Below are positions 25,280 through 45,828 of a stretch of 64,000 nucleotides of DNA, one piece after another (position 1 is the stretch's first letter; each line of letters begins with the position of its first letter). Source of the DNA: Roseibacillus sp. GTDB taxonomy: Bacteria > Verrucomicrobiota > Verrucomicrobiia > Verrucomicrobiales > Akkermansiaceae. Below the pieces are notes generated by a model. It did not search any database. It had not been told where the DNA came from and saw only the letters and a list, made by a program, of their open reading frames with translations. A program made the position numbers and the translations under genes. The stretch spans positions 32,001-96,000 of the forward strand of contig CBDEUM010000013.1 of assembly GCA_965242925.1 (NCBI GenBank), given 5' to 3'.

Positions 25280-25927
25280 TCAACGCCGGGAGGGCGATTT
25301 CCAGTCCGCCGCCTTAACCGGCTTGAACACCTTGGGAGGTTTCTCCCCCTCCACCGGAAGGCGCACCGAGATGGGGCCACCCTGGCAGATCGCCACCACC
25401 AGCAGGCCGGCGCGCTTCAGCGACTCCAGGTACTCTTCCGACAATGGATTCTGCCCAGTGGCCTGTTCAAGCGTGACCGGAAGGAGCCGGATCCATGAAG
25501 CATTCTTCGCGTAGAAATCGCGCCAGCTCACCAACTTCCCCTTACGTTGGCCATTCACGCGGGTTTTGAACCGGCTCGGTGTATTCAATACCGAGCCTCG
25601 CGGAACGATTGTCCAGCTCGATGCTCCTGAAACAATCGTGGAACGCTTCACGAGACTCTCCCGGCTCTTCGCCGCCTTGGTGGACGCCTCGGAATCCTCT
25701 CGCAGGTTTCGCTGCTGCAAGTCGGAGAGCCTGACGGTTTGCCCCTTCAATTTAGGGTCCCGGGGCCGCTGAAGGCTGGCAAGCTGCTCATGGGTCATTC
25801 GGGGACGAACGTTCAGTGCCTTCCCCTTGCCTTTCCCGGGTTTCCCTCCGGGCGCAATCAGTTCTACCGCGCCTGGAGAACTCACTCCGATGGCGGTGAT
25901 CCAGATGAATAATCCGATTCTGTTCAT
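25280..25927 (-). CDS. Hypothetical exported basic protein
   Basis: Signal peptide; globular C-terminus (WTIVPRGSVL, WRDFYAKNASWI, VVAICQGGPISV). Confidence 0.75.
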   Translation of the reverse strand: MNRIGLFIWITAIGVSSPGAVELIAPGGKPGKGKGKALNVRPRMTHEQLASLQRPRDPKLKGQTVRLSDLQQRNLREDSEASTKAAKSRESLVKRSTIVSGASSWTIVPRGSVLNTPSRFKTRVNGQRKGKLVSWRDFYAKNASWIRLLPVTLEQATGQNPLSEEYLESLKRAGLLVVAICQGGPISVRLPVEGEKPPKVFKPVKAADWKSPSRR

Positions 25928-25945
25928 ATTGAAAATGGGGAACGT

Positions 25946-26977
25946 CTACTCCTGATCGATCACGCCTCCATTGATTTCGATCGTCCGGTCCACGTTGATC
26001 TCTACTACATCCAGCAAATCAGTTCCGAATGGTGTCCGGTGGAGCAATTCAACAGTGTAAATGCCTTCCTCCGTGAAATAGCGGTCCATGCTCCTGACGG
26101 TCAGATCCCGGCTCTGGGGGATCGAGTCCTCCATGATCACAAAACTCGAGTTGATGGTCTTGGTTCCGTCCGGTCTCTCTTTCCGGGGACCAGGGTATAT
26201 CCGCATATAGGTGGTGCTGTCCGGATACAAGTTGACCAGGCTCACCGAAACCGGAGGCACCTGCTCGTAGTATCTGGAGGAATCCACCCCGCTGATTGTC
26301 CCAGTGGCGATAGGCCAGATCTGGACTTTCTCCGAATCGAGAATGGTTGCCGATACCCCAAAGTCCGCCTGGGCGGTGATTGTGAAGACTTCTTCTCCCT
26401 TCACCTGGGTCAGGTCGGGTCCGGTCAGGTTGGTCGCGGAGAAGGTGATCGTCGTATTTGCCGTTTCCTCCATGTAACCCTCCGTCACCACCGTCCCGAC
26501 CGGATTTTTCACCTCCTCGAAGCTGTATGCCCCATCGGGATATGCGAAGGTGTAATTGGTGTAATCCACCCACTTGGCAGCGTCTGGCGCAGTGGCATAG
26601 CTGGGATGGTTCTCGTCAAGTAACCCCGCTACCGAGATCTGCACCTGAAATGGTTGGTCCACCCGTGTCCTGGGGATCGCGAGATAAGGATCGCCGGTTA
26701 CAATGGTGATGGTCGCGTTGGGCGTATAAGCGGTCACATACTGCTCATCGAGCCGATATTCTGACACACTGCGATTGTGAATCGCCCAGAGTTCGAAGAA
26801 GGAGCCAGCCCCGCTCACCCCCGTTGGTGAAATCTTCATTCCGTTCGGAGCAACGCTCATGTCCCATTCGACACCGCTGTCCTGCTGGATCTGCCGGACA
26901 AAGTTGACATAATCGGCCGGATCCGCCGACACCACGCACGGCGCCGCTGCGGCCAGCAATAGTAATTGTTTCTTCAT
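25946..26977 (-). CDS. Hypothetical exported acidic beta-rich protein
   Basis: Signal peptide MKKQLLLLAAAAPCVVSA; T/V/Y-rich Ig-like composition. Confidence 0.8.
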   Translation of the reverse strand: MKKQLLLLAAAAPCVVSADPADYVNFVRQIQQDSGVEWDMSVAPNGMKISPTGVSGAGSFFELWAIHNRSVSEYRLDEQYVTAYTPNATITIVTGDPYLAIPRTRVDQPFQVQISVAGLLDENHPSYATAPDAAKWVDYTNYTFAYPDGAYSFEEVKNPVGTVVTEGYMEETANTTITFSATNLTGPDLTQVKGEEVFTITAQADFGVSATILDSEKVQIWPIATGTISGVDSSRYYEQVPPVSVSLVNLYPDSTTYMRIYPGPRKERPDGTKTINSSFVIMEDSIPQSRDLTVRSMDRYFTEEGIYTVELLHRTPFGTDLLDVVEINVDRTIEINGGVIDQE

Positions 26978-27035
26978 GATGAAATGTATGGATGCCGATT
27001 TCAGGAGGGTCATCAGGATTATGCCCAGGCGACTG

Positions 27036-27893
27036 CTACCGCTCTTTCCGTCCCCGTATGATTTTTCCGTTGTCGTCCACAGTCGCGGAGGACGAACTTG
27101 TTTGAGTGCTCAAATCCATGCTGGACAGGAGAGCGCCATCCCCATTGTTACGTTGAGTCTGATTGAGAGTTGTGGTGCAGACGATGTCCTGCATGTCAAA
27201 CCACCAGTCTCCCGGGTTGCTGGACCCCAGCTCAAAGGTATGAATGATATCGTGGGGTCCCAGGACCACGTGGTTATCTTCATCGAGAAACTGGGTCATG
27301 AAGCTCTCAATCCTGCCCTGTTCGTAGGCCGGGGCGTAGTCCGGCACGCTATCCCCGTCGATCATTCCGATAACAGACAAGTCCGAGCCTGCCGTCGAGT
27401 GGGTGTCGAACCAACTTCCGCTCCCGGATTGACCCCGGGCAGAGAAATCGATTTGTGTACCGGGCTGGACGTTCTTCTTCTCATAGACAATCACATCAGG
27501 ATTCACATCATTCTCCCGGCCGTAAAAAGCCAGTTCCCAGGGAGCGGAGGCTCCCACCCGAACCCATAGAGCGGCAGGAAGCAACGTGTGACCGGACTGG
27601 AGAGCGACCCCCATCACCCGGATCTTCAGGTCAATTTCCTGCGTCGGAGTAATCGTTCCATTCGGATCAACCTCGCTCAGATCCACAACAGCCACTGGAT
27701 AATCGATATTCCACACCATCCTGGGCCGGACCCCCGGTTGAACCACGGTGGGGGTCACCGAAATAGCACCAACCGGGATGTAGGGATCCTTATGGCCGGA
27801 ACCACGCGGGATGGATTCGCTGGTTTGGCCGGGAAGAGAGCTTCCCAAGGCCAACAGCCCGAGAAGGGCCAGTTGAGAGGCGTTTATTTTCAT
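27036..27893 (-). CDS. Hypothetical exported acidic beta-rich protein
   Basis: Signal peptide MKINASQLALLGLLALG; C-terminal FELG...FDMQDIV motif. Confidence 0.78.
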   Translation of the reverse strand: MKINASQLALLGLLALGSSLPGQTSESIPRGSGHKDPYIPVGAISVTPTVVQPGVRPRMVWNIDYPVAVVDLSEVDPNGTITPTQEIDLKIRVMGVALQSGHTLLPAALWVRVGASAPWELAFYGRENDVNPDVIVYEKKNVQPGTQIDFSARGQSGSGSWFDTHSTAGSDLSVIGMIDGDSVPDYAPAYEQGRIESFMTQFLDEDNHVVLGPHDIIHTFELGSSNPGDWWFDMQDIVCTTTLNQTQRNNGDGALLSSMDLSTQTSSSSATVDDNGKIIRGRKER

Positions 27894-28312
27894 GAGATCA
27901 GAGAGGGGAGGAGTTGTGCAATTCTTTCGAATTTCCAATAAAATTACAGAGCCTGACCTCTTGATCAATAGAAATATTAAAATATCTTGATATTATTGTA
28001 TTTTTGTTGAGAGGCGACGGGGCTCCATCCCTAGAAAGGTGGCAAAACCCCACCTTGGGCTCGGCTTAGCAAAATCCGGGGAAATCCGCATTACAGCCTT
28101 CAATCTCTCCAAATCCCCCTATTTCCGGGCAAAAGAGCTGGCAGATTAAATGGCCCGGGACAGCCATGATAAATAGAGTTCGCCTAGAAAAAAGCCGGCC
28201 AGGTAACCCGTCGAGGGCCGGAGTGCGGATGAGTCGGAGGGACGACCGCCGTGACAGCCAGCTGTTCATTCTTACGCCGTAACCAGTTTTTTCTGCTAAG
28301 CACTCCATATGA

Positions 28313-28364: not shown

Positions 28365-29228
28365 ATGCGCCTCGCTGGAATCCATTGTGATGTGATTTCC
28401 GGCTCCCGCTGTGGAGCCGTGATTCTCGGAGCGGTCCTGGCCGTAACGGACCTGTCGGTCGCGGCCGCCGTGCTCACCACCACCGAGCGCACCGCGCTTG
28501 CACACGAGAAGTTTCTTGAGCACCGCCGCGCCAGTATCACCAACCGGGTGAATCCCTATCTCGGACCGGGAGTAGCACAAGTTGTCGAAGAGCTCCCCCG
28601 GCCCTGGAAGGTCAGACGCAATCCCTGGCACCACCAGATTGGGGCCACCGTCTTCTGGGTAGGGGAGCACCCCTCCGCCCGGAACCCTGTTTCAAACATC
28701 TCAAGTTCCTGGGACGCCAATTGGGAAAACCGCTTTGGCGGCTACGACCATCCCTTCAAACGACAAGGCTACTTTCCCCTCGGCTTCGAGCCGAAGCTGA
28801 ACCCCTTCTACGTCGCGCTTCCCTACAACGACCTCCTGCACGGCAGAGAGCATCGCCCCGAAGCCTCCGAGGTCATCCCCTGGTTCTGGCGGGCTTACCG
28901 CGGACCGGGGGTCTCCGTCTGCCACAATAGATGGGTAGCCATCCACCACCAGGGACGTATCGTCTACGCCCAATGGAAAGATGTCGGGCCCTTCACAACC
29001 GACGATTGGCCCTATGTGTTTCAGGGCAGGCGCCCCCGTTCAAACGCCAACCAGAATGCCGGAATCGATATCAGTCCCGCCGTCCGTGACTTCCTCGGAA
29101 TGCGTGGAAACGCGGACGTCGACTGGCGGTTTGTTGAAGAATCCGAAGTCCCCGGGGGCCCCTGGTCAAAGTGGCTTCCACCACAACTGGGACTCCCCGC
29201 CGGATCCTCGGACCAACCGCTTCCGTAA
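28365..29228 (+). CDS. Exported protein with RlpA/expansin-like double-psi beta-barrel motifs
   Basis: FYVALPY, RWVAI..VYAQWKDVGPF, GIDISPAVRDFLG, resembling the DPBB pattern 'V.V.D.GPF...IDLS..A...LG'. Confidence 0.6.
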   Translation: MRLAGIHCDVISGSRCGAVILGAVLAVTDLSVAAAVLTTTERTALAHEKFLEHRRASITNRVNPYLGPGVAQVVEELPRPWKVRRNPWHHQIGATVFWVGEHPSARNPVSNISSSWDANWENRFGGYDHPFKRQGYFPLGFEPKLNPFYVALPYNDLLHGREHRPEASEVIPWFWRAYRGPGVSVCHNRWVAIHHQGRIVYAQWKDVGPFTTDDWPYVFQGRRPRSNANQNAGIDISPAVRDFLGMRGNADVDWRFVEESEVPGGPWSKWLPPQLGLPAGSSDQPLP

Positions 29229-29301: not shown

Positions 29302-29922
29302 CTACGGCTTGCCCGAAGGGACGTCCACCCCATCTCTCCGGATAATCACTCGAGGACCCTCTTGCTGCAAGACCCCACCATTATGATAGACCACCGAGAA
29401 TCTGGCCGATTTGTCACCACGCTTGGCGTCGGTCACCTCGGTCATGACCAGCATGAGGTTGCTGCCCGGTGCAGGTTCGATCTGGTAGGCTGTCGACCGG
29501 CTAATCACTCCATCCAGGAGTTCCTCACGCGTCTTCGCTCCCATCTGAAGCGGGCCGTGCCGGTGCGAGAGAATCTTCCTCAACTCCGCGAACTGGGCGC
29601 GGACGAACGCGCTGTTTCTTCCGGGATAAGTGTAGTGAAGAGCAACCTCGAAGAGTTTCCCGTCCATAAACCGTGCCTCCAGCGTGGTGGCATCATGACC
29701 GGGAAGAGTCCCTCTGGCCGGGGATACCAGCAACACCTTCAACCGGGGCTGATCAGCCGGAGCCTTCACGGTCTGGTCCAGTTTCGTCCTCATGGCCCAG
29801 TCAACCAGACGAGTGGGCGAATCCCCCCAACTCAACCCAAAGGGCGGCTGCAAAGGCTCTGCCGCCCACAGAACTGACACGCCGTGAAACACCAGAAATC
29901 CGCAGATCAGGAAAGCTCTCAC
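29302..29922 (-). CDS. Hypothetical exported protein
   Basis: GTG start, signal peptide, PPFGLSWGDS. Confidence 0.7.
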   Translation of the reverse strand: MRAFLICGFLVFHGVSVLWAAEPLQPPFGLSWGDSPTRLVDWAMRTKLDQTVKAPADQPRLKVLLVSPARGTLPGHDATTLEARFMDGKLFEVALHYTYPGRNSAFVRAQFAELRKILSHRHGPLQMGAKTREELLDGVISRSTAYQIEPAPGSNLMLVMTEVTDAKRGDKSARFSVVYHNGGVLQQEGPRVIIRRDGVDVPSGKP

Positions 29923-30447
29923 CCTTGCGTTGATTCTATCTCAAATCGCAGTCAATTCAAGACCCGTTCCGAACGACACGGCCTCCACCAGACACAACGA
30001 GGCAGTGTTCTCATCGAGGCAATCGTAGCCCTCACCCTTCTCTCGGTGGTCAGTCTGGTAGTCCTAAAAGGGACAATGGACATCCTCACGCCTCGTCAAT
30101 GGACCATGGTTCAAAATGTATCCGACGCCTACCTCACCTACGAAAAGGCCTTTGCACAGCGCATCCCCTTTGATGCCCTTACCGACGCGTCGTCTCCGTG
30201 GCCCGTCTATCCTGCCAGATCACATGCCCCGGTAACGATCGGCACCCTTCCCGGGGGAAGGACCCTCAACGGCAATGTGATCCGGACCAGGATCCCGGAC
30301 CAAGACAATTTCCCGGCTCATGGTGGGAACGGAACGATCTCCACAAACCCCGCCGAAATGCAGACCTGGAAACTGCAGAGCCACATCACCTACACCATCA
30401 GTGGCCGCGAATACGTCAAATCTCGAACCATCGTACGGACCCAATGA
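29884..30447 (+). CDS. Minor type IV pilin-like protein (PilV-like)
   Basis: Class III signal QRG|SVLIEAIVALTLLSVV (E5 present). Start uncertain. Confidence 0.75.
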   Translation: MKHQKSADQESSHPCVDSISNRSQFKTRSERHGLHQTQRGSVLIEAIVALTLLSVVSLVVLKGTMDILTPRQWTMVQNVSDAYLTYEKAFAQRIPFDALTDASSPWPVYPARSHAPVTIGTLPGGRTLNGNVIRTRIPDQDNFPAHGGNGTISTNPAEMQTWKLQSHITYTISGREYVKSRTIVRTQ

Positions 30448-31001
30448 TCACTTCCACAGAAAACAGCAGGCAATCCCCGACACGCCGTCGTGGATTTACC
30501 CTCCCGGAGCTTGCCACCGCAATAGGCCTCGCCCTCGCAATCGCGGCCATAATGATGACCCTGCTCCAACAGCAGGTCACCTTCCACCGGATCCTCAAAA
30601 CCCAGGGATTCCTGGTGGATGAAGCTCCCCAGATCAACAACACAGTCACTCAGATTCTCTCCCGCGCGGATGCCTATCGCATTCATTCGAATCTCAGTGA
30701 TGCAGTCGCCGGAACCAACGCCGTAACAGCCGACGGGAAAGTGCTCGTCCTCGGTTTCCTCAATCCGGATGGATCGGAGGACTTTGGGATCATCTCCTTT
30801 GAATCCGACAACGGAGAGGACGCACTCGCCTACTATACCATGGATCCGGCCACTCCATTCACCAAGACCGGAAACCCTGATTGGCTCATTTCCCGTCAGG
30901 TGGATAACGCGGAATTTTTCATCCAAAACGGCGTCTTCCGCATGCAACTCACCGGCCCCGCCGGCGAGATGATCACCTACTCCGGAACACCAAGGCTCTA
31001 A
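30444..31001 (+). CDS. Minor type IV pilin-like protein (PilW-like)
   Basis: RRRG|FTLPELATAIGLALAI; ATGA overlap with the upstream gene. Confidence 0.8.
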   Translation: MITSTENSRQSPTRRRGFTLPELATAIGLALAIAAIMMTLLQQQVTFHRILKTQGFLVDEAPQINNTVTQILSRADAYRIHSNLSDAVAGTNAVTADGKVLVLGFLNPDGSEDFGIISFESDNGEDALAYYTMDPATPFTKTGNPDWLISRQVDNAEFFIQNGVFRMQLTGPAGEMITYSGTPRL

Positions 31002-31024: not shown

Positions 31025-32938
31025 ATGAAAAAGAACCTCAGATCCGGCTATGTCTCAATTTTGGCCGTCGTCACCCTTTCCTCGATCATGCTGTTGATGC
31101 TCACCGCATCATTCCGTTACACCCTCCAGAATCAGGAGACCCAGAAGAAGACCCAGATCCGGATCGACTACACAAACCGCGAACAAGCACTGCTTCGCGC
31201 AGTTCTTACCGAGACTCCCAACAGCGCCATCAAGAACATGATGGCCAATTCGCGCTCCACAAGTGAGGAGTTACAGTCCCGCTGGCACTGGATCTTCAAA
31301 CGCGCCCGTGACAAGTCGAACGGTGAAACTGCACTCGAAAATAATATTGCGGAAGTCCTCGGAATCAACAGCCAATCCATTTCCGGCAACACGGGTGACG
31401 GCCCTCAGGACGACATCAGCGACTGCATAAACAGTATCGCGAACCAGCAAGCCATGCACCGGTTTTACATAAATGCCGGCACGAACAACACCGGCAACCT
31501 CCTTGGATCCGAGTATCCGGAAACCCTGGAACTCGTTAACGGCAGCCTGGAGATGCTGGACCGGGACCGTCCTGTCATCACGATGGACAAGACGTATGCC
31601 GGCGGCAAGCAGTTCAAGGTGATCCCCTACCCCGACGTGCACTTCGGCTATGTCTCTCAAAATGAGAATTTCGTGGCCAAACGAAACTGGTGGGCATTCT
31701 CCCTGACCTATGGAGCTGCTTCCAAATCCTCGACCGGCGTGGCCACCACGAAGAAAAACTTCGTTCTCTCAATCTACGAGGTGCCCTCGCAACTTGCACT
31801 TGGCAGCACCACCACCACCGCGCTCGGCAAACATGCGGACGGCACCGAATGGGGCAATGTAAGCATCACAGGTAGCGTCTTCGCAACCCGGGCCTCCACT
31901 GAAGGCAATCTCAGACTTGACCGCCTTGCCGCCCGCCGGGGCATCTCCCTTACCGACAATTCCTCGGTCGGGGGCGTCGCGCTCGACAACTTCACAGGCG
32001 ATCTTCCCTCCCGCGAACAGTACGAGGCAGATAATGCCAGCTTCTTCCCTCTCTCCAATTCCTCGGACTCAGGTCTTGTGGCCTTCCTCCCGATCGCGCG
32101 CGGTCTGGAGATCTTTGACGATCTGGAGGATGTCACCGACTACAACTCCGCCTCTTCGACAGGATGGAACTACTACAGCCGGCCCGCCCTGCAGACCGTC
32201 ATGAAACTGCGGGTGGAAGACGTGATTTCTCCCGAGGATCAAACCCCAACCTCGATTTCCTTCACTTATCTCTCTTATGGAATCGAAAAAACCGCCCTCT
32301 TCACACGGGGTAACAACTGGCCAACTCAGGACTCCCCTGAGGGCTCGACCTTCCCCTTCCACCTCGAGACCACCCGGCTTGAACGACGGACCCTCGCGGT
32401 CTACATCGGCAGGCTGGCCACCTACCTCAAGTTCCTTGGAGCCGATCCCCTGGCAGTGAACAATTCCCTCATGATCAACGCGAACTACCGGGACAACATC
32501 AGGATCAGCAAGCCGAACATCCCCAGCCTGTCCACCGACATCTCCCTCATCCTGCGTGACACAAGGGATTTCACCGCCTTCCCGAAGGGTTTCTCCCTGG
32601 TTACTCCCTTCCGGATGTATCTCGTCAATGATGTCAACATCACGGCCAGCCGCGTCGATGACAATGGAAAGAGAATCTTCCCCCCAATCTCGCTCTTCAC
32701 TCCTGAAAAGCGTTTCGGAATTCGAGACAAGGCCATGAATATCGCCCTGAAGGGGCAGATCAATCACACTGGGAAAAACAGAAGCGATGCCGTCCGACCT
32801 CTTGATCTCCGGTCCGGCGCCGATGACCAAGTATCCACCAACAAGATCGAAGCCGATCTTTATTCCATTACCGACCCCGATCAGTTGCCTCCCATCACGC
32901 AGATGAACTGGCTTGTGACCATCGAGCAGGTTGACTGA
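31025..32938 (+). CDS. Large PilX/GspK-like pilin (637 aa)
   Basis: RSG|YVSILAVVTLSSIMLLML (no E5, as in PilX/GspK); third gene of the minor-pilin operon. Confidence 0.7.
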   Translation: MKKNLRSGYVSILAVVTLSSIMLLMLTASFRYTLQNQETQKKTQIRIDYTNREQALLRAVLTETPNSAIKNMMANSRSTSEELQSRWHWIFKRARDKSNGETALENNIAEVLGINSQSISGNTGDGPQDDISDCINSIANQQAMHRFYINAGTNNTGNLLGSEYPETLELVNGSLEMLDRDRPVITMDKTYAGGKQFKVIPYPDVHFGYVSQNENFVAKRNWWAFSLTYGAASKSSTGVATTKKNFVLSIYEVPSQLALGSTTTTALGKHADGTEWGNVSITGSVFATRASTEGNLRLDRLAARRGISLTDNSSVGGVALDNFTGDLPSREQYEADNASFFPLSNSSDSGLVAFLPIARGLEIFDDLEDVTDYNSASSTGWNYYSRPALQTVMKLRVEDVISPEDQTPTSISFTYLSYGIEKTALFTRGNNWPTQDSPEGSTFPFHLETTRLERRTLAVYIGRLATYLKFLGADPLAVNNSLMINANYRDNIRISKPNIPSLSTDISLILRDTRDFTAFPKGFSLVTPFRMYLVNDVNITASRVDDNGKRIFPPISLFTPEKRFGIRDKAMNIALKGQINHTGKNRSDAVRPLDLRSGADDQVSTNKIEADLYSITDPDQLPPITQMNWLVTIEQVD

Positions 32939-34949: not shown

Positions 34950-35356
34950 TCGCCCACGTCCCAGAGGGAATCCGTAGAGGATCCAGAAGGATCATACACT
35001 CTACCACCCGCTTCCGTCAGAATCGGTGGCGACTTTGTTACATCATAGGTGAGGCTGTTACCGTTGAGATCCTCCACCCCGGGAAGAGCTGCGCCACCAC
35101 TCGGAAGGTATTGGATCAAGTCATTGGTCGTTATCGAATCAACCGCCTTCCTCGGGTGGTCCGCGAGGTAGGAGCGTTGCGCCACGTATACTTCCCGCAG
35201 AGCCGCGGAGGCCTTCTTGCCTTTGTTCCACTCGCCGATATTGCCGGCGAAGTACATCGTCGCTCCCATGATGCTGAGGATGATGAAGATGACAACCGTC
35301 AGCTCGATGAGAGTGACCCCCGCCCGGGGTGGTGTTTGATGACGATGTCTGTTCAT
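34946..35356 (-). CDS. Type IV pilin-like protein
   Basis: RAG|VTLIELTVVIFIILSI. Confidence 0.85.
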   Translation of the reverse strand: MNRHRHQTPPRAGVTLIELTVVIFIILSIMGATMYFAGNIGEWNKGKKASAALREVYVAQRSYLADHPRKAVDSITTNDLIQYLPSGGAALPGVEDLNGNSLTYDVTKSPPILTEAGGRVYDPSGSSTDSLWDVGE

Positions 35357-36953: not shown

Positions 36954-38640
36954 CGGAATATGTCATGTCGATTGTTTTGCTGACTGCCTTCAGGTCGGTC
37001 TGACCTTCCGCCAGGAGGCGTAATCCGCTTCGCCGAAGATTCGGGAGCGTTCCGTCATTAAGAACCATGATTTCGAGATCGTAGGGACTGATCTCCCCCT
37101 TGGAGAGTTGATCGGAGACCCGCGGAGTGATCGGAATGATCTCGAGAATTGCGGTTCGACCGCTGTACCCAGTCTGCCGGCACTCCGAACATCCCTCCGG
37201 TCGCGCGACGAAGAGAGGCCGTTCCGCCCATTCGTCACCAAGATTGAACAATCGACGCTCGGTCTCCTCCACTCCATCTACCTGGACCTTGCAGTCAGGA
37301 CAGAGCACCTTGATCAGACGCTGTGCACAGGCAGCCTTGAGGGTCTGTGCAATTTTCCAGCGCTCGATCTTCAGTTGCTCAAAACGCTCAATGATCTGGG
37401 ATGCCCTGGGAGTGTGGATGGTGGTCAGGACCTTGTGTCCCGTCACCGCAGCCTCAATGGCCAGTTCGGCCGACTCGGTATCCCGCACCTCCCCCATCAG
37501 AATGATGTCGGGATCACTCCGCATGAAACTGGTGATCATCGGCTTGAACTCCGAGGCGCTCTTAAGATCACAGTGAGTCACTCCTGGAATTTCATCCTCC
37601 ACCGGATTCTCCAGAGTAAGAATATTAACCTCGGGACGGTTGAGTTCCCGCAACATCGCGTTCAGGGTCGTCGATTTTCCAGACCCTGTCGGTCCGCTCA
37701 TCACGATGATCCCCGCCGGGATCTTCATCACACGATTGAGCTCGAAAAGGGTTTCATCATCGAAGGCCAGCGAACCCTTTCCGAGCTTCACGTTGATGTG
37801 ACTTTTATCAAGAAGCCGCATCGTGACATGGTAGCCCCGGTAGGTACGATGGCGTTCATAGCGGATGTCAATGGGCCGGTGGTAATAGGCGATGGTAAAA
37901 CGACCCGAGATTCCCGGCTTTGTATTGCGGGTCTCGGCGGGCAGTTTCATCAGATTGAGGAAGAACGCATCAATGCGATCCTTGAGCTTCATCGGCATCT
38001 CCACCTTGTCACCGAGGTCTCCATCGATCCGAAAGCAATAGTAAAACGATTCCTTTTCCACCTTGAAGTGGACATCGGAAGCACGAAGCTTGGTGGCGGT
38101 GGCAAGGATTGTGGCGGCGAGCTGGGTGATCGGCTCGTCGTATTCCGCGGTCACATCGAAATCCTGCAGTCCCTCATCGAGATCCTCTACATCGATGGAC
38201 TCCAGCTGGGAATGATTGGGTCCCTGGGTGGTTGTTACGCGCTCGATTGCACGGCTTATCTCACTGCTCAGCGTGACGACCTTGTCCAGTTGAAGATCAG
38301 GAAAGCGAGGGGGAAGATACTCGTCCGGCAAGGAACTCCAGGGATTGGATACTGCGACGAGAAGCCGCTCCCCGTAGCTGCAGAGGGGGGTAAATCCTCC
38401 CCGCGTGAGCAAGGCCGGATCACAGGCATCCAGAAGAGAAGAGTCACAGAACTCTGCTATCTTTGGCAGGAACGGCAGCCCGTTCACCTGCGCGATGGCG
38501 GACATGAACAGGGGGCGGGAAACCCTGTTGGGAACCTGGTCATGGCCCAGCTCGGCCAGGGAGGAGTCATGTGCAGCGAGCGCATCCATGACCCGACCGC
38601 TGATCAAGTCGTTGAACTGAATGCCGTCAAACTCAATCAT
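36946..38640 (-). CDS. pilB: GspE/PilB assembly ATPase
   Basis: ASDVHF, GPTGSGKSTTL, TLENPVE, MRSDPDIILMGEVRD, TGHKVLTTIH, CPDC...CSEC zinc motif; start set at the ATGA overlap at 38640. Confidence 0.92.
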   Translation of the reverse strand: MIEFDGIQFNDLISGRVMDALAAHDSSLAELGHDQVPNRVSRPLFMSAIAQVNGLPFLPKIAEFCDSSLLDACDPALLTRGGFTPLCSYGERLLVAVSNPWSSLPDEYLPPRFPDLQLDKVVTLSSEISRAIERVTTTQGPNHSQLESIDVEDLDEGLQDFDVTAEYDEPITQLAATILATATKLRASDVHFKVEKESFYYCFRIDGDLGDKVEMPMKLKDRIDAFFLNLMKLPAETRNTKPGISGRFTIAYYHRPIDIRYERHRTYRGYHVTMRLLDKSHINVKLGKGSLAFDDETLFELNRVMKIPAGIIVMSGPTGSGKSTTLNAMLRELNRPEVNILTLENPVEDEIPGVTHCDLKSASEFKPMITSFMRSDPDIILMGEVRDTESAELAIEAAVTGHKVLTTIHTPRASQIIERFEQLKIERWKIAQTLKAACAQRLIKVLCPDCKVQVDGVEETERRLFNLGDEWAERPLFVARPEGCSECRQTGYSGRTAILEIIPITPRVSDQLSKGEISPYDLEIMVLNDGTLPNLRRSGLRLLAEGQTDLKAVSKTIDMTYSDE

Positions 38641-39218
38641 ATCCCAAACTGTTGCTGACAGAGTGACATCCATCCATCATGGTGGAGTAGTACCCGCGAT
38701 ACAATTGGAGTGGTTCCGGTTTTCTCCCCGATGGTGTGCATGATGATCTCGGCGGCAATACCGAGCGCGACGGGATTGATCGAAGCGACTCCGATCGCCT
38801 CCGATTCCTCGGCGTAGAGAATGGGAGTCATCAGCCTTCTGCATTCCGTCAGGAGATTCTCATGGAGATCATAGAAAGCGGAGGGCGTGGACATCCTGCT
38901 TGCGAAGGGCACCAACGCCAGCTGCTGGCCCATGGCCTGCGAAAGAGCCCGTCCCAGTTGTTCGACTTCCAGGGGACGGGCATCAGGATCGCCTACGCGC
39001 AGGGCCGTGAGAAACTCAAGAGGATCCCACGGCCTTGGTCCCTGCAGCGGCGCCAAGCCGTGTTCCCGGAGCTGGTGCAGTTCAGCCGGAGTCGCCAGGC
39101 CCTGCTCCTGAAGGAGCTTGGTGGTCTGATCGAGGCAGGTCGGGTCGGTGGCAGTGGGTGCACCTCCGGGAAGAGATGCACTCTCCAGCACAGCCGTATT
39201 TCCAGCCTGGGTTTGCAT
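38637..39218 (-). CDS. Stand-alone GspE/PilB N-terminal-domain-like protein
   Basis: LLQEQGLATPAELHQL (degenerate MshEN-like) and CRRLMTPILY...IGVASINPVAL (T2SSE_N-like); translationally coupled to pilB. Confidence 0.55.
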   Translation of the reverse strand: MQTQAGNTAVLESASLPGGAPTATDPTCLDQTTKLLQEQGLATPAELHQLREHGLAPLQGPRPWDPLEFLTALRVGDPDARPLEVEQLGRALSQAMGQQLALVPFASRMSTPSAFYDLHENLLTECRRLMTPILYAEESEAIGVASINPVALGIAAEIIMHTIGEKTGTTPIVSRVLLHHDGWMSLCQQQFGI

Positions 39219-39224
39219 GTTGGA

Positions 39225-41063
39225 CTAGCGCTTTCGGATGAACTTCAGGCGGCCATGACGAAGCACACTCTTGGCCCGGCCTTCACGGGATTCCCCTAGA
39301 TCTACCTTCAACTCTTCCACCGTGGGACGGTGATCCCGCTGACTGGGCCGCAGATCCTCAAGGGCCCGATTCAGGTCCGGTTCGTGGGCCGGTCCCGGAA
39401 GTGCTGGCTCAATCCAGTCGTGGCCGGGCTTGAGGCTCACATCATCACGGATCGCTCTGCTGGTCGCACCGTTCTCGGCAACACTCCCCGGATTGTAGGA
39501 GGTCGGAGTCACTACAAAAACAAGGCTTGAGGTTTCCTTGACGGCCTCCTTGCTCTTGAAGAAGAAGTTGATGCCGGGGATGTCTCCTAGAAGGGGCACC
39601 TTGTTCTTGTCCTTCGTCTTCACCTGCCCGTAGAAGCCGCCCACCACGAGGGAGTGCCCATCAGGAATGCGGGTGACAGTCTCGATCATGGACTCGGATA
39701 CACGGGGATACCTGTTTCCACTCTGCCCGATGATCTCCCCCACAACCTGAGCCGAACGGGGACGCATCTTCATCCGGATCGTGCCGTCAGGAAGGAGAGT
39801 CGGGGTGACCGCCACCGTCACTCCAATCTCACGGGTAGTAGAGGGATCCCCCACCGGATCCTTTGCGTCCACCGAATAGCGCACCTCTTCCGTGACCTGG
39901 TTACTCACCTCGGTCTCGTTGATAGTCGTGGTAATGATCGGAACACGATCAATGAGAGCGATCGTAGCTTTTTCATTATCCTCCGTGATCAGCGTCGGAT
40001 TGGAGGTCTGGGTTACAAGTCCTCCCTTCTGCAACGCATGGAGAACTCCACCCATTTGAACCGGGGAAAGAACAATCGTGTTGTTGCTGGGAGTATCGCT
40101 CCCACGGAGAACAGATCCTGTTCCGAGGGTTCCGGTGGCGGCGAGGGTATTATCGATGCCGAAGAGGGAATTCAGGCTCGCGATAGTCTCAAGCGGGATT
40201 CCGGTGCTCCCAAGATTGGAGGACCAATCGACTCCCTTGCGCTCGCCGGCACTACTGTTCACGCTGAGGATCTTGATTTCGATGACGACCTGACCCTTGG
40301 CCTTGTCTACCATGGTAAGCAGATTCTTGGCACGCTCCACCTGATGGGCTGCATCAACGATAATGATGGTGTTGGTCTTCGGTTCATAATTGGCGACCCC
40401 GGTAGGTGACAGCAGGGGCTGGATTAATCCCTTGATCTGCTCGATGTCCGTGGGACGTAAATAGCGCAGCTGATAATGCCACTCCGACGCGGGCAACCGG
40501 TTGAGTTGCTCGGCATTCAGCGCATAAACGGTATTCCCCTTGGTGTAGAGTGTCAGGCCATACTGGAATGCCAGTTCCTCCATCTGCTGCAGGGGATCAC
40601 CACCATTGAGGTGGCCGCTGACATTGAAATCGGCACCGGTAATACTGGTGTTGTGGAAATACTGCTTGTTCGCACGCTTGGCCAGCATCTGGAAGATATC
40701 GTTGATTGCGGCATCCCTGATCAGGTATTCACCATTGCTCTCCTCGATCTGCCCGAGATCATCGCCCGGAGCACCGGGTCCTCCATTCTCTCCACTCGGA
40801 GGTGGAGGCGGGGGTGGCAATTCGGAAAGATCACGCCCCGCGGGAAGGGCCGGAGCTCCGATGGGCACCGTCTCACCGGGCGGATTGGCTGGTGGTGGAG
40901 GCGGATCCGCCACACCTGGTGCCGAAGGATCAAACTCGGGAGGGCTTACCACCGGCGGTGACTCATCCTGTTCTTCCGGAAGAACTGGGACTGGAACCTG
41001 CTGCCCATGAACGAGTGCAACGCTCAGCAGCAGCAGAGAAAACAGTAACTTTTTCGGTTTCAT
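39225..41063 (-). CDS. Secretin (PilQ/GspD family)
   Basis: Signal peptide, Pro-rich linker, N3 domain (YQLRYLRP..EPKTNTIII), QVVIEIKIL, NPTLITEDNEKATI, VPLLGDIPGINFFFK. Confidence 0.93.
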   Translation of the reverse strand: MKPKKLLFSLLLLSVALVHGQQVPVPVLPEEQDESPPVVSPPEFDPSAPGVADPPPPPANPPGETVPIGAPALPAGRDLSELPPPPPPPSGENGGPGAPGDDLGQIEESNGEYLIRDAAINDIFQMLAKRANKQYFHNTSITGADFNVSGHLNGGDPLQQMEELAFQYGLTLYTKGNTVYALNAEQLNRLPASEWHYQLRYLRPTDIEQIKGLIQPLLSPTGVANYEPKTNTIIIVDAAHQVERAKNLLTMVDKAKGQVVIEIKILSVNSSAGERKGVDWSSNLGSTGIPLETIASLNSLFGIDNTLAATGTLGTGSVLRGSDTPSNNTIVLSPVQMGGVLHALQKGGLVTQTSNPTLITEDNEKATIALIDRVPIITTTINETEVSNQVTEEVRYSVDAKDPVGDPSTTREIGVTVAVTPTLLPDGTIRMKMRPRSAQVVGEIIGQSGNRYPRVSESMIETVTRIPDGHSLVVGGFYGQVKTKDKNKVPLLGDIPGINFFFKSKEAVKETSSLVFVVTPTSYNPGSVAENGATSRAIRDDVSLKPGHDWIEPALPGPAHEPDLNRALEDLRPSQRDHRPTVEELKVDLGESREGRAKSVLRHGRLKFIRKR

Positions 41064-41092: not shown

Positions 41093-41680
41093 TTACGGGG
41101 CGGCAGGGGAGGTATTGGTATCAAGCCGGAGGGGCTCCGCTTCGCCTCGGCTCCTGGAGGTAACGCCCTGCACCCGGACCCGGCCTGCGGCGGCGGTCAC
41201 GCCCTCGGGAAGGACATCGAGGCGGCGAAGAGCGATTTCTCCGGTCCGCAGATTTCTGAAGGTCACCCGGGAGGATCGGACAGCCTCGACCCGGACGGAG
41301 AGGCGCTCACCACCGCGGACGATGGGAAAAACCTGGCCCACCCGGAAGATGCGGGCGCCGACCAGAAACTCCTTCTCCCTCGAATTGATCACGGAAATCT
41401 GGATGCCGTTGATGAATTCGATGAAAGGTGTCTTGCTAATCTTCTTGGCGACATGGTTGTCCACCGGAGTCTTCGCCGGATTCTGATAGAGACCAAATGG
41501 CCCGCGCTCACGGCTGATGATGGAGAGTCGTTTTCTCATTCTTGCGATCCGGTCATCCAGATCTGCAGAAAGAAACCTCGCGGGGGTGCCCCCGGGCACA
41601 GCCGAGGAAACAACTGGAACAGGCTCCCCGGCAGCCAGCAGGGAAGTGGCGAGAGGGAGAATAAGGAGAATCGCTTTCAT
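41093..41680 (-). CDS. PilP-position exported protein
   Basis: Signal peptide, RGPFGL motif and short beta domain; lies between the PilO-like gene and the secretin; ATGA overlap. Confidence 0.6.
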   Translation of the reverse strand: MKAILLILPLATSLLAAGEPVPVVSSAVPGGTPARFLSADLDDRIARMRKRLSIISRERGPFGLYQNPAKTPVDNHVAKKISKTPFIEFINGIQISVINSREKEFLVGARIFRVGQVFPIVRGGERLSVRVEAVRSSRVTFRNLRTGEIALRRLDVLPEGVTAAAGRVRVQGVTSRSRGEAEPLRLDTNTSPAAP

Positions 41681-42216
41681 TTCTTCTGCCATGTGGTGTA
41701 AACGACGTTCGCGTTTAGGACATTCTGGTTGGAGGCCCTGGAGAGTTTGATGCTATCGAGTTGTAGTTGCGGCATTCTTGTCTCCAGTTCGAGGAAGGCG
41801 GTCTGGAGAGCCCGGAAAGTTCCGCGGAAGGAGAAGTGCAGCTGACTGGACGGCTGCTTGCTTGCGCCACCAATGCCCCCCGCCGTGGAGGTTGGACGGA
41901 AGGCCGTCTGCTGGAAATGAGTGGCATCGAATTCATTCTGAAACTCACGGAAGAACGTATTGACGGTGGTGGCGGCAGGCTGCTCGAAAAGAGCCATCCA
42001 GCGATGCATGTGCGGAGCCTGCGACTGAACGTTCTGCTCCAGCACTCCCCGTTCCCTTTCCAGGATCTTGAAGGTCTGGTGGTGATTGCGCCGGGCTTCG
42101 TACGTGTTCTCCATCTTTCCCTGAAAGTGAACTCCCAAGCCCAGACCAATCACGACAAGCAGCACCGGAGCTACCAGGCCGAAGACGATGACGGACTCTT
42201 TGTAATGCGGGTTCAT
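41677..42216 (-). CDS. PilO/GspM-like alignment protein
   Basis: N-terminal TM, coiled coil, ferredoxin-like LHFSFRGTFRALQTAFLELETRMPQLQLDSIKL. Confidence 0.7.
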   Translation of the reverse strand: MNPHYKESVIVFGLVAPVLLVVIGLGLGVHFQGKMENTYEARRNHHQTFKILERERGVLEQNVQSQAPHMHRWMALFEQPAATTVNTFFREFQNEFDATHFQQTAFRPTSTAGGIGGASKQPSSQLHFSFRGTFRALQTAFLELETRMPQLQLDSIKLSRASNQNVLNANVVYTTWQKK

Positions 42217-43961
42217 GGGATGGAAACAATGGGAATGGCAATGGGATCTTCAGCAGTAATACGCTGAGTGATGGTCAGCCTGAAATTTTGGGAAAATCGT
42301 TCTTCCGGTTTCATTCCGCCATCCGGTTTGAAGCGTTTGTTCTCCGAAGTCAGGAGGTTCACCAGAAGAGTGCGGGAGGACAGGTCCGTCCGAAGGGAAT
42401 CGTTGCCAGTATGCTTCCGGACAACCTCAAAGACTTTCCCCATTCCCTCGGTGGTACTGATCACAGTGAGGTGATTCAGGGCCTCCGAGTTAGCGAGCCC
42501 GGTGATGGTCCACTCCTTAATCACGCCCGCCTTCTTGTCCTTTTCGTTAACCACTTCCGGTCGCACCCGGTGAGTGGTTTCAGAGAGAATGACGCTCTCC
42601 GGATCCGGAAAGAGATGGTTTACGAGCTCCATGGATACCCAGGCCTTGGAACGGTCGGCGAGCAGGGAGCTCCATTGCTCATATCGGCGGATCTCCGAAG
42701 CGAGAACCTTGTTGCCTTCGCGGGAGACCTCGCCGGTCTGATTCCAGGCTTCGTCATTGATGATCCTCACGGTCCGAATCCCGGTCCAGGACAGGAAAAG
42801 GACCAGCGCCACGGCACCAATCCGCAGGGCCACTGACCCGTAGCGGAGGATCTTCATCTCGGTTTGAGAGGGACAGAGTTCCACCTCTTCCACGGTGGCC
42901 GGGAGAAAATCCTGGGTCGCCCACTTCTGCTCAGCCATCCCCCGGAAGGTCTCGGAAGCAGCCAATCCTTCCGCCTGATCAGCGATCAGGAGACTGGCAG
43001 GGCCTTGGAACTCAAGCGGCACCTCGGGATCAAACCAGGCGCTCTCACGCCAGTTGAGGGTCACGGCCCCAGGCAGTTCGGGGAGATCAGAATCCGTCTC
43101 CTCGTGGGACAGGGGAAGGATGTAGACCAGTGGCTCGGGCAGTTCGAGTGCAGCGGCCATGGTCTGCATGATCCGCCCCACGTGTGGAGGAGCCCCCCCC
43201 GCATGATGCCGAACGGACCGGAGCATGACGAGATCCCCCTCTGCGGTGAAAAAGGCGATTACGGAGAAGGACGAATAAGAAAACAGGATACTGAACGGCT
43301 CGGAAGGCAACTGGGAAGCTAATTGCGGCAGGGCGGCCAAGGCCACCAGGGGAGCGCTCAGGGCGCAGGTGCGGATGGGAAAGTTAAGGGTTTCGCCAAT
43401 CGTCCGGATCTGGCGAAGGTAGTCATGACACTTGCGGGAAATCGTAATGGCCGAGCCGAATAGTTGGCCTGGCCTGGCACCAGGATAAGGAAAGAGCCGG
43501 AAAGAAAGCTCCTCCGTTGAGATCCTGTGATCCTCCAGGACCTCCTGGGGAGCACTGGTGACCTGATCGCTCAGAGCTCTCAGGTCCTCGGGGCGCTCGT
43601 TGGCGCGAGCGAGCTCCGAGATGGCGAATTCGTCCGCCAGATGGAGGATCACGGCAAGGGAACGCGGCTTCCCGTTGAATTCTCCGCGAATCTCCGAGAG
43701 ATACTCCCTCAGCTCCTCCTCACTTGCCTGCAGGGAAGGCGCGCTCACCCGGACCCAGTTCTTTCTGTCCTCCTTTCCAGAACAAATGCAGGCCTCCGAA
43801 ACTTCCTCGCCTTCGAGGAACAAGTGGAGTTGACACTCCAGCTCAAGAGCATTGCTGTACCAGTCAGGGTTCTTCGAGCGGGTGGTCTCACGGTGGAGAC
43901 CACGGGCCTGAAGGAACCGTTGCCAGGCAGAGAGCTGAGCTGGGTGGATCAGGGTTTCCAT
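42213..43961 (-). CDS. PilM/PilN (GspL-like) fusion protein
   Basis: ~370-aa cytoplasmic domain, single TM (IGAVALVLFLSWTGI), PilN-like periplasmic domain (WVSMELVNHL...WTITGLA); precedes the PilO-like gene. Confidence 0.6.
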   Translation of the reverse strand: METLIHPAQLSAWQRFLQARGLHRETTRSKNPDWYSNALELECQLHLFLEGEEVSEACICSGKEDRKNWVRVSAPSLQASEEELREYLSEIRGEFNGKPRSLAVILHLADEFAISELARANERPEDLRALSDQVTSAPQEVLEDHRISTEELSFRLFPYPGARPGQLFGSAITISRKCHDYLRQIRTIGETLNFPIRTCALSAPLVALAALPQLASQLPSEPFSILFSYSSFSVIAFFTAEGDLVMLRSVRHHAGGAPPHVGRIMQTMAAALELPEPLVYILPLSHEETDSDLPELPGAVTLNWRESAWFDPEVPLEFQGPASLLIADQAEGLAASETFRGMAEQKWATQDFLPATVEEVELCPSQTEMKILRYGSVALRIGAVALVLFLSWTGIRTVRIINDEAWNQTGEVSREGNKVLASEIRRYEQWSSLLADRSKAWVSMELVNHLFPDPESVILSETTHRVRPEVVNEKDKKAGVIKEWTITGLANSEALNHLTVISTTEGMGKVFEVVRKHTGNDSLRTDLSSRTLLVNLLTSENKRFKPDGGMKPEERFSQNFRLTITQRITAEDPIAIPIVSIP

Positions 43962-44042
43962 GGCGGGGAAGATTTCCAGCAATCCTGACGAGTCAGAGGG
44001 ATCGGACCTCGAATGACTCGGTCTGAGAGTCTGGGCACATCA

Positions 44043-44081: not shown

Positions 44082-44092
44082 AGATTAACTTC

Positions 44093-44497
44093 TTACCAGT
44101 CGCCGTAATCGGATGGGACGTGCTTCTCCGATCCGGACAGCGAGCAGCTCGCGTAGAGAGCGCCTGATAGCGGGAGCGAGTCGTCCATAAACGCGTATTG
44201 GCCAGTACCGGGGCACTGGGGAACACTTTCCACGAACTTGCCGGGACCGATGATCTCGCTCTTGGCATTGGCAACGATGTCACCAGCACTGTGGCCGTTC
44301 ATGTTCTGGAAGGAACGCATTCCTTGTTGGACGTTACGGATGTTCATGATGCATCCGGCACGGTCAGAACCCCTTTTCCAGGCGCGTGCGCCGACGAAAA
44401 GGATACTGATCAGTGAAAGAAGTACAAGGATCACGACCGTCAACTCAATGAGGGTCATCCCGGACTTCCTGGCTTTTTGGGTGTATGTCAGTGTCAT
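44093..44497 (-). CDS. Probable major type IV pilin
   Basis: RKSG|MTLIELTVVILVLLSLISILFVGA; short globular head with three Cys; downstream stabilising hairpin. Confidence 0.85.
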   Translation of the reverse strand: MTLTYTQKARKSGMTLIELTVVILVLLSLISILFVGARAWKRGSDRAGCIMNIRNVQQGMRSFQNMNGHSAGDIVANAKSEIIGPGKFVESVPQCPGTGQYAFMDDSLPLSGALYASCSLSGSEKHVPSDYGDW

Positions 44498-44565
44498 TGT
44501 TTCTTGTCTGTTTCGGTTGATGATGCGCACAAGGCGCATGTTAGCGAGGCTCCCGAAAACACCGG

Positions 44566-45828
44566 TCAGATTTCATCTTCATCGTTCCGGTTCATTCGAG
44601 CGCTCTCATAAGTCTGGTCATCGATGTCACCGCGCCCGAGCAGGTTGCGCAGACTGTCATCCCACGAGATGTTGCCGGCGCGGCGAATCACATCTTCCAG
44701 CGAATTCGCTCCGGAGGTGTAATTCGCAATCGCACTGGCCACCGCATCATTGTTGTTTTGAAGAAATTCGTAGGTCAGAACCCTCTTCCCGTTCAGGCCC
44801 TTCAGAAGACCCTGGGAGTGAATGAAGATCAGCATCTCGCTCAGGCGGCTGAGAACGGAATGAAACTTCTCATGGGGATACATTTCCAGGATTCGGCCCA
44901 TGGTCTTCACTGCCCCGGTGGTGTGGAGAGTGGAGAGAACCAGGTGACCGGTCTGGGCAGCTTCCAGACAGGTGTCCATGGCATCGCGATCCCGAATTTC
45001 CCCAAGAAGAATGATGTGGGGGGCCTTCCGCAGGACATCCTTGAGGCCCTGGCGGTAGCTGGCCACGTCACGGCCCACTTCCTGTTGAGTGATGATAGTC
45101 GGTGACATGGCCCGATGACCGGGATAGTTGGGATGCTCCATGTCCGCCTGATAGCGATATTCGACCGGATCCTCGATCGTGACAATGTGCTTGGGCGACG
45201 ACTGGCGGAGCCAGTCCATGAGAGAGGCCAACGTGGTCGACTTCCCGGAACCGGTCGGCCCGGTGACCAGGCAAAGGCCGGCCCGCCGAGAGACCGCCTG
45301 CCGCAACGAAGCCGCGGTATCAGGATCGATTCCCAGCACGTCGAGGGGTGGTATCTTATCGCTCAGTATCCGGCAGGTTATGCCCAGCCCCGAAGCAGAA
45401 AGGTGTGCCTGGATCCGCAGCCGCCCTGAAACCCTGCTACCATTGGCAAACTGCACCCCATCGGCCGAAAAATCGTCTACCCGGGTTTCCTGGAAGCGCT
45501 GGAGCGCGCGTGCAATCTTATCATCCGAACGACTGGCGCGATCATTCCCACCAAACCCATGACCGGATTCTTCCTGCCGGCGAACCAGTTCCTTGTAGAT
45601 CTCCAGGAGATCGCGATCGGAAAGGAATCCCAGGAAATCAAGGCATTCCATCCCATGGTTGGTTTCAACGTAGATAGGGCGCTTGGCGCGGAACTGAATA
45701 TCGGAAACACCGCGTCCCTCGCAGGCCTCCAGCGAGACCGCGAGAAGTTCCTCCCCGGACATGCCTGGCTGGAAGACCCGCAATTGCGGAGCCTCCGGCA
45801 GGACCGGCGGTTGCTGGATCGCACTCAT
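44566..45828 (-). CDS. PilT/PilU-family retraction ATPase (divergent)
   Basis: VSDIQF, GPTGSGKSTTL, HIVTIEDPVEY, QQEVGRD, LRKAPHIILLGEIRD, AAQTGHLVLSTLH; no tetra-Cys motif. Confidence 0.88.
   Translation of the reverse strand: MSAIQQPPVLPEAPQLRVFQPGMSGEELLAVSLEACEGRGVSDIQFRAKRPIYVETNHGMECLDFLGFLSDRDLLEIYKELVRRQEESGHGFGGNDRASRSDDKIARALQRFQETRVDDFSADGVQFANGSRVSGRLRIQAHLSASGLGITCRILSDKIPPLDVLGIDPDTAASLRQAVSRRAGLCLVTGPTGSGKSTTLASLMDWLRQSSPKHIVTIEDPVEYRYQADMEHPNYPGHRAMSPTIITQQEVGRDVASYRQGLKDVLRKAPHIILLGEIRDRDAMDTCLEAAQTGHLVLSTLHTTGAVKTMGRILEMYPHEKFHSVLSRLSEMLIFIHSQGLLKGLNGKRVLTYEFLQNNNDAVASAIANYTSGANSLEDVIRRAGNISWDDSLRNLLGRGDIDDQTYESARMNRNDEDEI

Follow-up and report, generated by a model that had tools for sequence, protein, structure and literature searches.

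A 64,000-nucleotide stretch of a Roseibacillus sp. genome (Verrucomicrobiota, Akkermansiaceae; assembly GCA_965242925.1, contig CBDEUM010000013.1, positions 32,001–96,000), called the window here, carries between its positions 25,280 and 45,828 a locus of 22 genes that probably encodes a complete, retractile filament machine of the type IV pilus class, a member of a divergent family known to date from Verrucomicrobiota alone. The locus is a real and conserved gene cluster. Its core is a 14-gene operon on the minus strand (33274–45828) encoding PilT-like and PilB-like ATPases, a PilC/GspF-like platform protein, a secretin, two pilins and eight proteins without a Pfam family. Intergenic gaps range from -37 to +110 nt; start and stop codons overlap as ATGA at 3 of the 13 junctions, and longer overlaps of 8, 16 and 37 nt are found at three others. 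A plus-strand operon of three minor pilins converges with the core and adjoins five exported proteins of no known family, all of which begin with a hydrophobic, signal-like segment. An earlier note, made from the sequence alone, had described this gene list, its order, strands and convergence, and the Pfam and NCBIfam matches (T2SSE, Secretin, T2SSF and N_methyl) agree with it.

The earlier note also counted many parts that could not be assigned, and this holds: Pfam assigns no family to 15 of the 22 locus proteins, and a Pfam scan of 64 orthologues of these proteins gave nothing consistent (a single T2SSM_b match, E 0.013). Since the recognizable parts are very divergent members of known families, accompanied by about a dozen proteins of no family, the locus is better described as a variant of a familiar machine than as a new kind of machine. 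All core functions are encoded within it except the prepilin peptidase. As noted before, no gene for that enzyme lies within the 64-kb window; the only match in the genome (A24_N_bact, 97.5 bits; Peptidase_A24, 37.7 bits) is on another contig, and the system is self-contained if the peptidase is supplied in trans.

No motor, platform or secretin of the locus reaches the NCBIfam cut-off for the type IVa pilus (T4aP), the type II secretion system (T2SS) or the mannose-sensitive haemagglutinin (MSH) pilus. The PilB-like ATPase scores 300.9 bits against PilB (TIGR02538, cut-off 675.65) and 286 bits against the GspE equivalog (cut-off 630); against the PDB it matches PilB at 225 bits and GspE at 223 bits. 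The platform protein scores best against the GspF equivalog, at 146 bits (cut-off 424). The secretin reaches 128 bits against GspD (cut-off 351), 127 bits against PilQ (TIGR02515, 284.35), 106.5 bits against MshL (TIGR02519, 250.2) and 41.9 bits against Amuc_1098_fam (NF042912, 750), and its best PDB match is the PilQ of M. xanthus at 68 bits. Pilin 1 lies above the cut-off for the prepilin cleavage/methylation motif (TIGR02532; 18.5, cut-off 16.3), and N_methyl matches both pilins. No locus protein matches GspG or GspC at E 0.01 or better in NCBIfam, and Pfam and NCBIfam find no AAA-type domain in the locus proteins beyond the two T2SSE motors, nor an MshM-type protein.

The machine was earlier said to be capable of retraction, and the first gene of the operon points the same way. 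Its product keeps the Walker A, Asp-box and His-box motifs of a PilT-family ATPase intact, its best PDB matches are PilT proteins (up to 153 bits), and in a tree the PilT-like proteins of these loci form one clade, sister to the PilT/PilU pair encoded elsewhere in the same genome. In each of the 12 genomes in which gene order was compared, the operon begins with this gene.

The assembly ATPase defines a clade of its own. When the PilB-like protein was compared with 1.84 billion representative sequences, close matches at 56% and then 37–42% identity were followed by a plateau at about 220–240 bits. An NCBIfam scan took in 81 of the best 150 matches; no family matched 20 of these at E 1e-110 or better, and the remaining 61 scored 410–909 bits against PilB or GspE. 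In an 87-sequence tree the window protein, eight orthologues and the 20 no-family representatives fall on one side of a split with full support (Shimodaira–Hasegawa-like approximate likelihood ratio test, SH-aLRT, 100). A second tree of 68 rows, rooted on PilT, included labelled GspE (two), PilB and IncI type IVb pilus (T4bP) ATPases from plasmid records. Here the T4bP ATPase branches first, and the divergent clade (support 100, stem 0.55) is sister to all PilB/GspE-type rows (support 91 and 82). Trees and approximately unbiased (AU) tests were run under LG+G4 with a reference set that MSH and Com proteins lay outside; a search for labelled MshE in plasmid records returned only GspE, PilB and T4bP labels. 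Constraining the divergent clade to group with the PilB clade lowers the log-likelihood by 11.8 units (p-AU 0.378), and constraining it to group with the GspE references gives a likelihood 6.65 units above that of the free quick search (p-AU 0.553). Only the monophyly and the long stem of the clade are robust; its deep position, with PilB, GspE or the two together as sister group, is not secure. The earlier note was to count as refuted if the ATPases and secretin nested within a described T4aP or T2SS clade; no T4aP, T2SS or MSH cut-off is reached, but the AU tests allow a sister relation to PilB or to GspE.

Two side observations came from the same searches. About a dozen of the representative proteins (within P0094–P0113) are some 1000 amino acids long, and each matches the PilB-like query in two stretches; the five that were scanned score about 800–900 bits against PilB/GspE across the two stretches and have the look of two complete assembly ATPases fused in tandem. 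Separately, two plasmid loci from Campylobacterota had a T2SS-like appearance.

The order of the operon is the same in 12 of 12 genomes from nine genera. Among these, tblastn missed pilin 1, the 199-aa protein and the 193-aa protein in one genome each and the 229-aa protein in two, its matches in the other ten being weak. The 139-aa protein was detected in all 12, and the 156-aa and 165-aa proteins are syntenic in all 12. The 589-aa scaffold protein is present in 74 of 151 genomes of the same family (12 of 20 genera) and, searched as a profile, in 69 of 201 genomes of the order, from five of its eight families (13/52, 33/52, 19/51, 2/4 and 1/38, with 0/3 in three further families), so that the locus is patchily distributed across the order. 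Relatives of this protein are all unnamed or 'hypothetical', and the taxa, where given, are Roseibacillus, Akkermansiaceae, Haloferula and Luteolibacter. When 401 genomes sampled across the phylum were searched, clear PilB-like orthologues, scoring above 700 bits, turned up in two families of this order only; the other PilB-like matches listed are all at or below 248 bits. A search of genome contigs with the ATPase alignment, using the generic Walker A motif as its pattern, gave three metagenome-assembled loci labelled Verrucomicrobiia or Verrucomicrobiales that carry the locus among the 80 loci kept. The number of pilin 1 genes varies: one Verrucomicrobiia metagenome-assembled locus (L086) has four tandem paralogues at 1369–3515, between the PilT-like and scaffold genes, and a further locus (L186) has two. 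A 4.1-kb stretch of the core was found nearly whole in 14 sequencing runs labelled marine or seawater metagenome, one of which may be the source sample.

The flanking genes form a second conserved module. Eight of them, the three minor pilins and the genes for the 287-, 310-, 215-, 355- and 206-aa proteins, are a conserved block that adjoins the core in 4 of the 12 genomes and lies 8 kb to 2.7 Mb away in four others; in one further genome the minor-pilin trio alone was found within the stretch fetched. Within the block the 287-aa protein is 48–69% identical across genera. The two modules occur together although they are often apart. The 637-aa minor pilin is present in 76 of the 151 family genomes; both it and the scaffold were found in 73 genomes, the core alone in one (a fragmented assembly), the minor pilin alone in three and neither in 74. 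Within one genus, the 7 genomes out of 15 that carry the core are also those with the 637-aa protein, though the modules are about 2 Mb apart in a closed genome. These counts come from related, non-independent genomes and are supportive rather than a statistical test. The earlier note named a lack of synteny of the flanking genes in relatives as grounds for rejecting its reading; here these genes are a syntenic, co-occurring module.

Within this block, the set for the 355-, 215- and 310-aa proteins is duplicated in tandem in one genome (L058 in G057, 13338–18357) and the minor-pilin trio in another (L059 in G094, 10071–16532). Such duplications suggest diversification of the tip or of the accessory set.

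Loci of the same architecture were found in metagenome contigs whose PilB-like representative is 38% identical to that of the window. These have all genes on one strand, in the order PilT-like, one or two pilins, 603-aa scaffold, 182-aa, 211-aa, secretin, 219-aa, PilB-like, PilC-like, 151-aa, pilin 2 and three minor pilins. Chthoniobacterales is the only taxon label among the best 120 of 169 relatives of the 603-aa protein. In the Chthoniobacterales-type loci the minor-pilin genes are part of the main operon, where they follow PilC, and pilin 2 stands directly upstream of the trio in L186, L190, L171, L173 and L194. Profile comparison with hhalign pairs the no-family proteins of the two orders at high probability – 589 aa with 603 aa (100%), 637 aa with 666 aa (100%), 199 aa with 211 aa (98.8%), 193 aa with 219 aa (98.3%) and 179 aa with 182 aa (98.2%) – with mismatched control pairs at or below 1.3%. 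No counterparts of the 139-, 156-, 229- and 165-aa proteins were detected in these loci, and the exported block genes, save for one weak match, were not found there either. The locus family is therefore wider than one order, and its named relatives so far are all Verrucomicrobiota, in keeping with the lineage specificity first proposed for it.

Several of the no-family proteins can be given a tentative identity. AlphaFold modelling points to a PilM/GspL-like fold for the 589-aa protein, whose real start is probably Met8. The 637-aa minor pilin, the last of the trio, has a class III signal motif like the other two but lacks Glu5, and there is moderate support from its AlphaFold model for a ComZ-like beta-solenoid tip fold. 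Two fold searches with this model both returned ComZ first, then ice-binding proteins and, weakly, GspK; the same pattern is described for ComZ itself in PMC6561018. The modelled pilin helix with a large beta-solenoid would resemble the tip of the ComZ/PilA2 competence pilus of Thermus thermophilus as that article presents it (PDB 6qvi; PMC6561018).

For other proteins the names first given to them stand in part or fall. The 'PilO-like' label of the 179-aa protein has as its sole basis a weak match to GspM (NF040576; E 5e-5, 22.9 bits, below the cut-off of 60). The 199-aa protein, labelled 'PilP-like', has the expected gene position and no family match. A 'DPBB-like' reading of the 287-aa protein finds a lead in the Atlas, where the nearest named cluster is RlpA DPBB_1 at 0.85, and no Pfam family. 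The stand-alone ATPase N-domain claimed for the 193-aa protein is not supported: hhalign gave 1.0% and 1.9% against canonical and own-clade PilB N-termini, when the positive control, own-clade against canonical PilB N-terminus, gave 98.8%. Its matches in the Atlas are to Peptidase_M13 only, at chance level. Among the 66 pairs of 12 no-family families no hhalign probability exceeded 20%, and 14 such families gave at most 6% against the accessory proteins of the T2SS-like and Amuc-type loci of the same genome.

The window locus is the most divergent filament system of a genome that has several, with seven T2SSE ATPases, five secretins and three platform proteins in total. The canonical PilT/PilU pair scores 414 and 430 bits against pilT_fam, above the cut-off. 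The three other PilB/GspE-type ATPases score 545–596 bits, with 500–595 bits against PilB TIGR02538, and the other platforms score 308 and 403 bits. Against the same or corresponding models, these paralogues score 1.8–2.8 times as high as the window proteins, though only the PilT/PilU pair is above cut-off. A complete Amuc_1101/1100/1099/1098-type cluster lies on contig C38 (14.8–21.7 kb, L082), at 793, 274, 256 and 1091 bits, all above cut-offs; the Akkermansia-type pilus-like system therefore also exists in a marine relative, beside the window locus. That system and the window locus share a phylum and the combination of a secretin with a PilM-like protein. However, the Amuc-type cluster is a separate locus, the window secretin scores 41.9 against a cut-off of 750, and the window families give at most 6% in hhalign against the Amuc-type proteins, so the window locus is not the Akkermansia-type cluster, a comparison that the earlier note had proposed.

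Contig C30 (126–138 kb, L081) carries a T2SS-like locus with a GspG at 99 bits (cut-off 88.85), a GspK-like protein, no-family proteins of 436, 185 and 200 aa and a 902-aa secretin. Neither an ATPase nor a platform is encoded there; these are on contig C4 at 93.6–96.6 kb and 118.1–123.5 kb (L083 and L084). One of the two C4 loci carries two tandem PilB/GspE-type ATPases. ComEC and DprA are also encoded in the genome, yet both were detected in at least 10 of 14 control genomes and so indicate nothing specific.

As the parts are read here, the single, unlinked PilD-type peptidase of the genome would cleave the prepilins, and pilin 1 would be polymerized by a PilB-like hexamer on the PilC-like platform. 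The 589-aa protein would form a cytoplasmic PilM/GspL-like ring, as its modelled fold suggests, and its periplasmic domain would, with the 179-aa and 199-aa proteins, make up an alignment complex reaching the secretin. Priming of assembly and capping of the fibre would fall to pilin 2 and the minor-pilin trio, which would correspond to the H-I-J-K positions of the type II system, with the beta-solenoid of the 637-aa ComZ-like subunit as putative tip receptor. The PilT-like ATPase would retract the fibre, the 193-aa cytoplasmic protein may be a dedicated partner of the PilB-like ATPase, and the five exported block proteins may be factors associated with the fibre or the envelope. The favoured use, offered as speculation, is capture of a ligand – DNA, a polymer or a surface – by the solenoid tip, followed by retraction. 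It is possible, if doubtful, that the locus represents a separate class of type IV filament native to Verrucomicrobiota, on a par with MSH or T4bP and marked by an ATPase clade of its own, the PilM/N-GspL fusion scaffold, a conserved, PilB-coupled 193-aa cytoplasmic subunit of new fold and a ComZ-like solenoid tip; such a machine would combine T2SS-style priming with PilT-driven retraction and reel in DNA or marine polysaccharide.

Several points weigh against reading the locus as a retractile pilus. The machine is known here from its genes, and the filament, its retraction and its ligand are inferred. The PilT-like protein scores 234.3 bits against pilT_fam (TIGR01420), below the cut-off of 319.1. 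PilO-like and PilP-like roles would rest on the one GspM match and on gene position, and the role of the 193-aa protein is a guess. Near-identical contigs in four marine RNA libraries, which come from four studies, cover 23–27 of 30 bins over 26000–45900 at 95% identity or more, bins without cover carrying no meaning; this counts in favour of the reading, but the contigs represent presence in RNA libraries rather than proof of transcription. Finally, the adjacent exported proteins and the GspL-, GspM- and GspK-like parts would also fit secretion.

The chief functional alternative is secretion of the exported proteins encoded alongside. A T2SS-like system would push the 355-, 310-, 215- and 206-aa proteins through the secretin with a short endopilus, and the PilT-like ATPase would only aid disassembly. 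The likeness to the T2SS (GspC-M) is considerable: a fused GspL-like scaffold, a 179-aa partner whose only match is GspM, a platform that scores best against GspF, a K-like minor pilin without Glu5 and a compact locus that includes the secretin. The ATPase clade is held with the GspE references at a likelihood slightly above that of the free tree, and the exported proteins, some of them duplicated, travel with the minor pilins as one block. Unlike a T2SS, however, the locus has a PilT-family gene at its head, both in the 12 genomes and in the Chthoniobacterales-type loci, where the exported block genes are all but missing; we know of no T2SS locus with a PilT gene. No match to GspG or GspC was found in it, it misses the GspE, GspF and GspD cut-offs, and the genome already has a separate T2SS-like locus with a GspG above cut-off. 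Secretion as the function of the locus is considered improbable. The main classificatory rival is that the locus is a fast-evolving paralogue of an ordinary T4aP, whose accessory proteins are PilN/O/P, TsaP or FimV-type parts made unrecognizable by sequence drift only. The parts list is indeed that of a T4aP (PilBTC, PilMNOPQ, FimU-PilVWX): an assembly and a PilT-family ATPase, a platform, a scaffold of probable PilM fold with N/O/P-like partners, a secretin whose best structural match is PilQ, pilins with class III signals and a four-member minor-pilin set. A grouping of the ATPase clade with PilB is not rejected by the AU test, and T4aP are polyphyletic and very diverse according to Denise et al. 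2019 (PMC6668835). Against this, all equivalog and subfamily cut-offs that were tested, including those of PilB, PilT/PilU and PilQ, are missed, by about half, when paralogues in the same genome score far higher, and the ATPase clade has full support on a long stem. Encoding in a single locus, fusion of PilM- and PilN-like parts in one 589-aa protein and possession of the conserved 193-aa protein all set the locus apart from T4aP, as does the unlinked peptidase; no counterpart could be detected there for the 193-aa protein or for four more of the operon proteins, and the hhalign comparisons revealed no relation among the no-family proteins or to the accessory proteins of the other systems. Drift from an ordinary T4aP is therefore regarded as rather unlikely.

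A distant relationship to the MSH pilus is very unlikely. The msh genes run in the order alignment genes, secretin, ATPase, platform, small protein and pilins (mshI-J-K-L-(M-N)-E-G-F-pilins), which the order in this locus resembles. The PilB-like ATPase has a weak MshEN domain (Pfam, E 2e-4), and encoding in a single locus without a peptidase is an MSH trait according to PMC6668835. However, the msh locus of V. cholerae is not known to carry a PilT gene such as heads this operon, the secretin falls well short of MshL (106 against 250), and the locus has no MshM-type AAA protein, a component listed as mandatory in the MSH model of TFFscan as published there (PMC6668835). The sequence comparisons taken together fit a locus that mixes T2SS-like and T4aP-like traits, and a retractile type IV filament of a divergent family remains the preferred reading.

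The genes of the locus, all present in the window at the coordinates given, are listed in Table 1.

Table 1. Genes of the filament locus in the window, core operon first, with strand and main evidence (TM, transmembrane)
Feature	Coordinates	Strand	Evidence or remark
PilT-like retraction ATPase, 420 aa, N-terminal extension of ~120 aa	44566..45828	-	T2SSE 141 bits
Type IV pilin 1 (KSG/MTLIE), 148 aa, likely major pilin	44093..44539	-	N_methyl match
589-aa bitopic scaffold	42213..43982	-	PilM/GspL-like actin-fold cytoplasmic domain (model), TM helix 378-408, periplasmic alpha/beta domain
179-aa bitopic protein, PilO/GspM-like candidate	41677..42216	-	weak GspM match; N-terminal TM helix
199-aa exported protein, PilP/GspC position	41093..41692	-	signal peptide; no family; role from position only
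Secretin, 612 aa: Pro-rich linker, N0, one N domain, secretin domain	39225..41063	-	Secretin 116 bits, Secretin_N 29.5 bits
193-aa cytoplasmic protein	38637..39218	-	no Pfam/NCBIfam family; 3' end overlaps PilB-like start by 37 nt
PilB/GspE-like assembly ATPase, 575 aa, divergent clade	36946..38673	-	T2SSE 269 bits
PilC/GspF-like platform, 377 aa	35820..36953	-	T2SSF twice, 119 bits
139-aa protein, cytoplasmic domain and C-terminal TM helix	35388..35807	-	no family
Type IV pilin 2 (RAG/VTLIE), 136 aa, likely fourth minor pilin (GspH/FimU position)	34946..35356	-	N_methyl match
156-aa exported protein	34479..34949	-	signal peptide; no family
229-aa bitopic protein, N-terminal CxxC, Pro/Glu/Asp-rich periplasmic part	33768..34457	-	no family
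165-aa membrane-anchored coiled-coil protein	33274..33771	-	sub-threshold coiled-coil matches only
Minor pilin (QRG/SVLIE)	29884..30447	+	ComGE N-terminus, weak match
Minor pilin (RRG/FTLPE)	30444..31001	+	start inferred within ORF 30198-31001; orthologue N_methyl E 0.011
Large minor pilin (RSG/YVSIL), 637 aa, without Glu5, ComZ-like candidate	31025..32938	+	pilin helix and beta-solenoid (model)
206-aa exported protein, divergent from minor-pilin operon	29302..29922	-	no family; member of 8-gene block
287-aa membrane or exported protein	28365..29228	+	no Pfam family; DPBB/RlpA-like reading a lead only
310-aa exported protein	27036..27968	-	no family; block member, duplicated in one genome
355-aa exported protein	25946..27013	-	no family; block member, duplicated in one genome
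215-aa exported protein	25280..25927	-	no family; block member

The accessory block is bordered by a gene for a SprT-like zinc metalloprotease (24523–25122, minus strand; 55.8 bits), which is adjacent to it in one genome of the same genus too. A plus-strand gene at 19786–22944 encodes a 1052-aa protein that combines GDSL lipase, DUF7133 (217 bits), HEAT and cupredoxin-like domains, and the translation of the next open reading frame (22963–24513) shows a sulfatase-like CTPTR motif.

Current classifiers probably place the window locus among their 'generic' systems, of which 884 were left unassigned by Denise et al. 2019 (PMC6668835). A full-text literature search found no paper on this locus, though the supplementary tables of PMC6668835 may list such systems.

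Verrucomicrobiota are abundant in sea and soil, where they degrade polysaccharides. To our knowledge almost nothing has been reported of their surface machines beyond the Amuc_1100 cluster of Akkermansia. The locus provides a defined list of 22 genes for a second, widespread filament system of the phylum, with five no-family components conserved between two orders, and its 637-aa protein is a candidate tip receptor that is directly testable for binding of DNA or glycans. Because it is a natural mixture of T2SS-like and type IV pilus-like traits, it would also be useful for studying the divergence of these machines.

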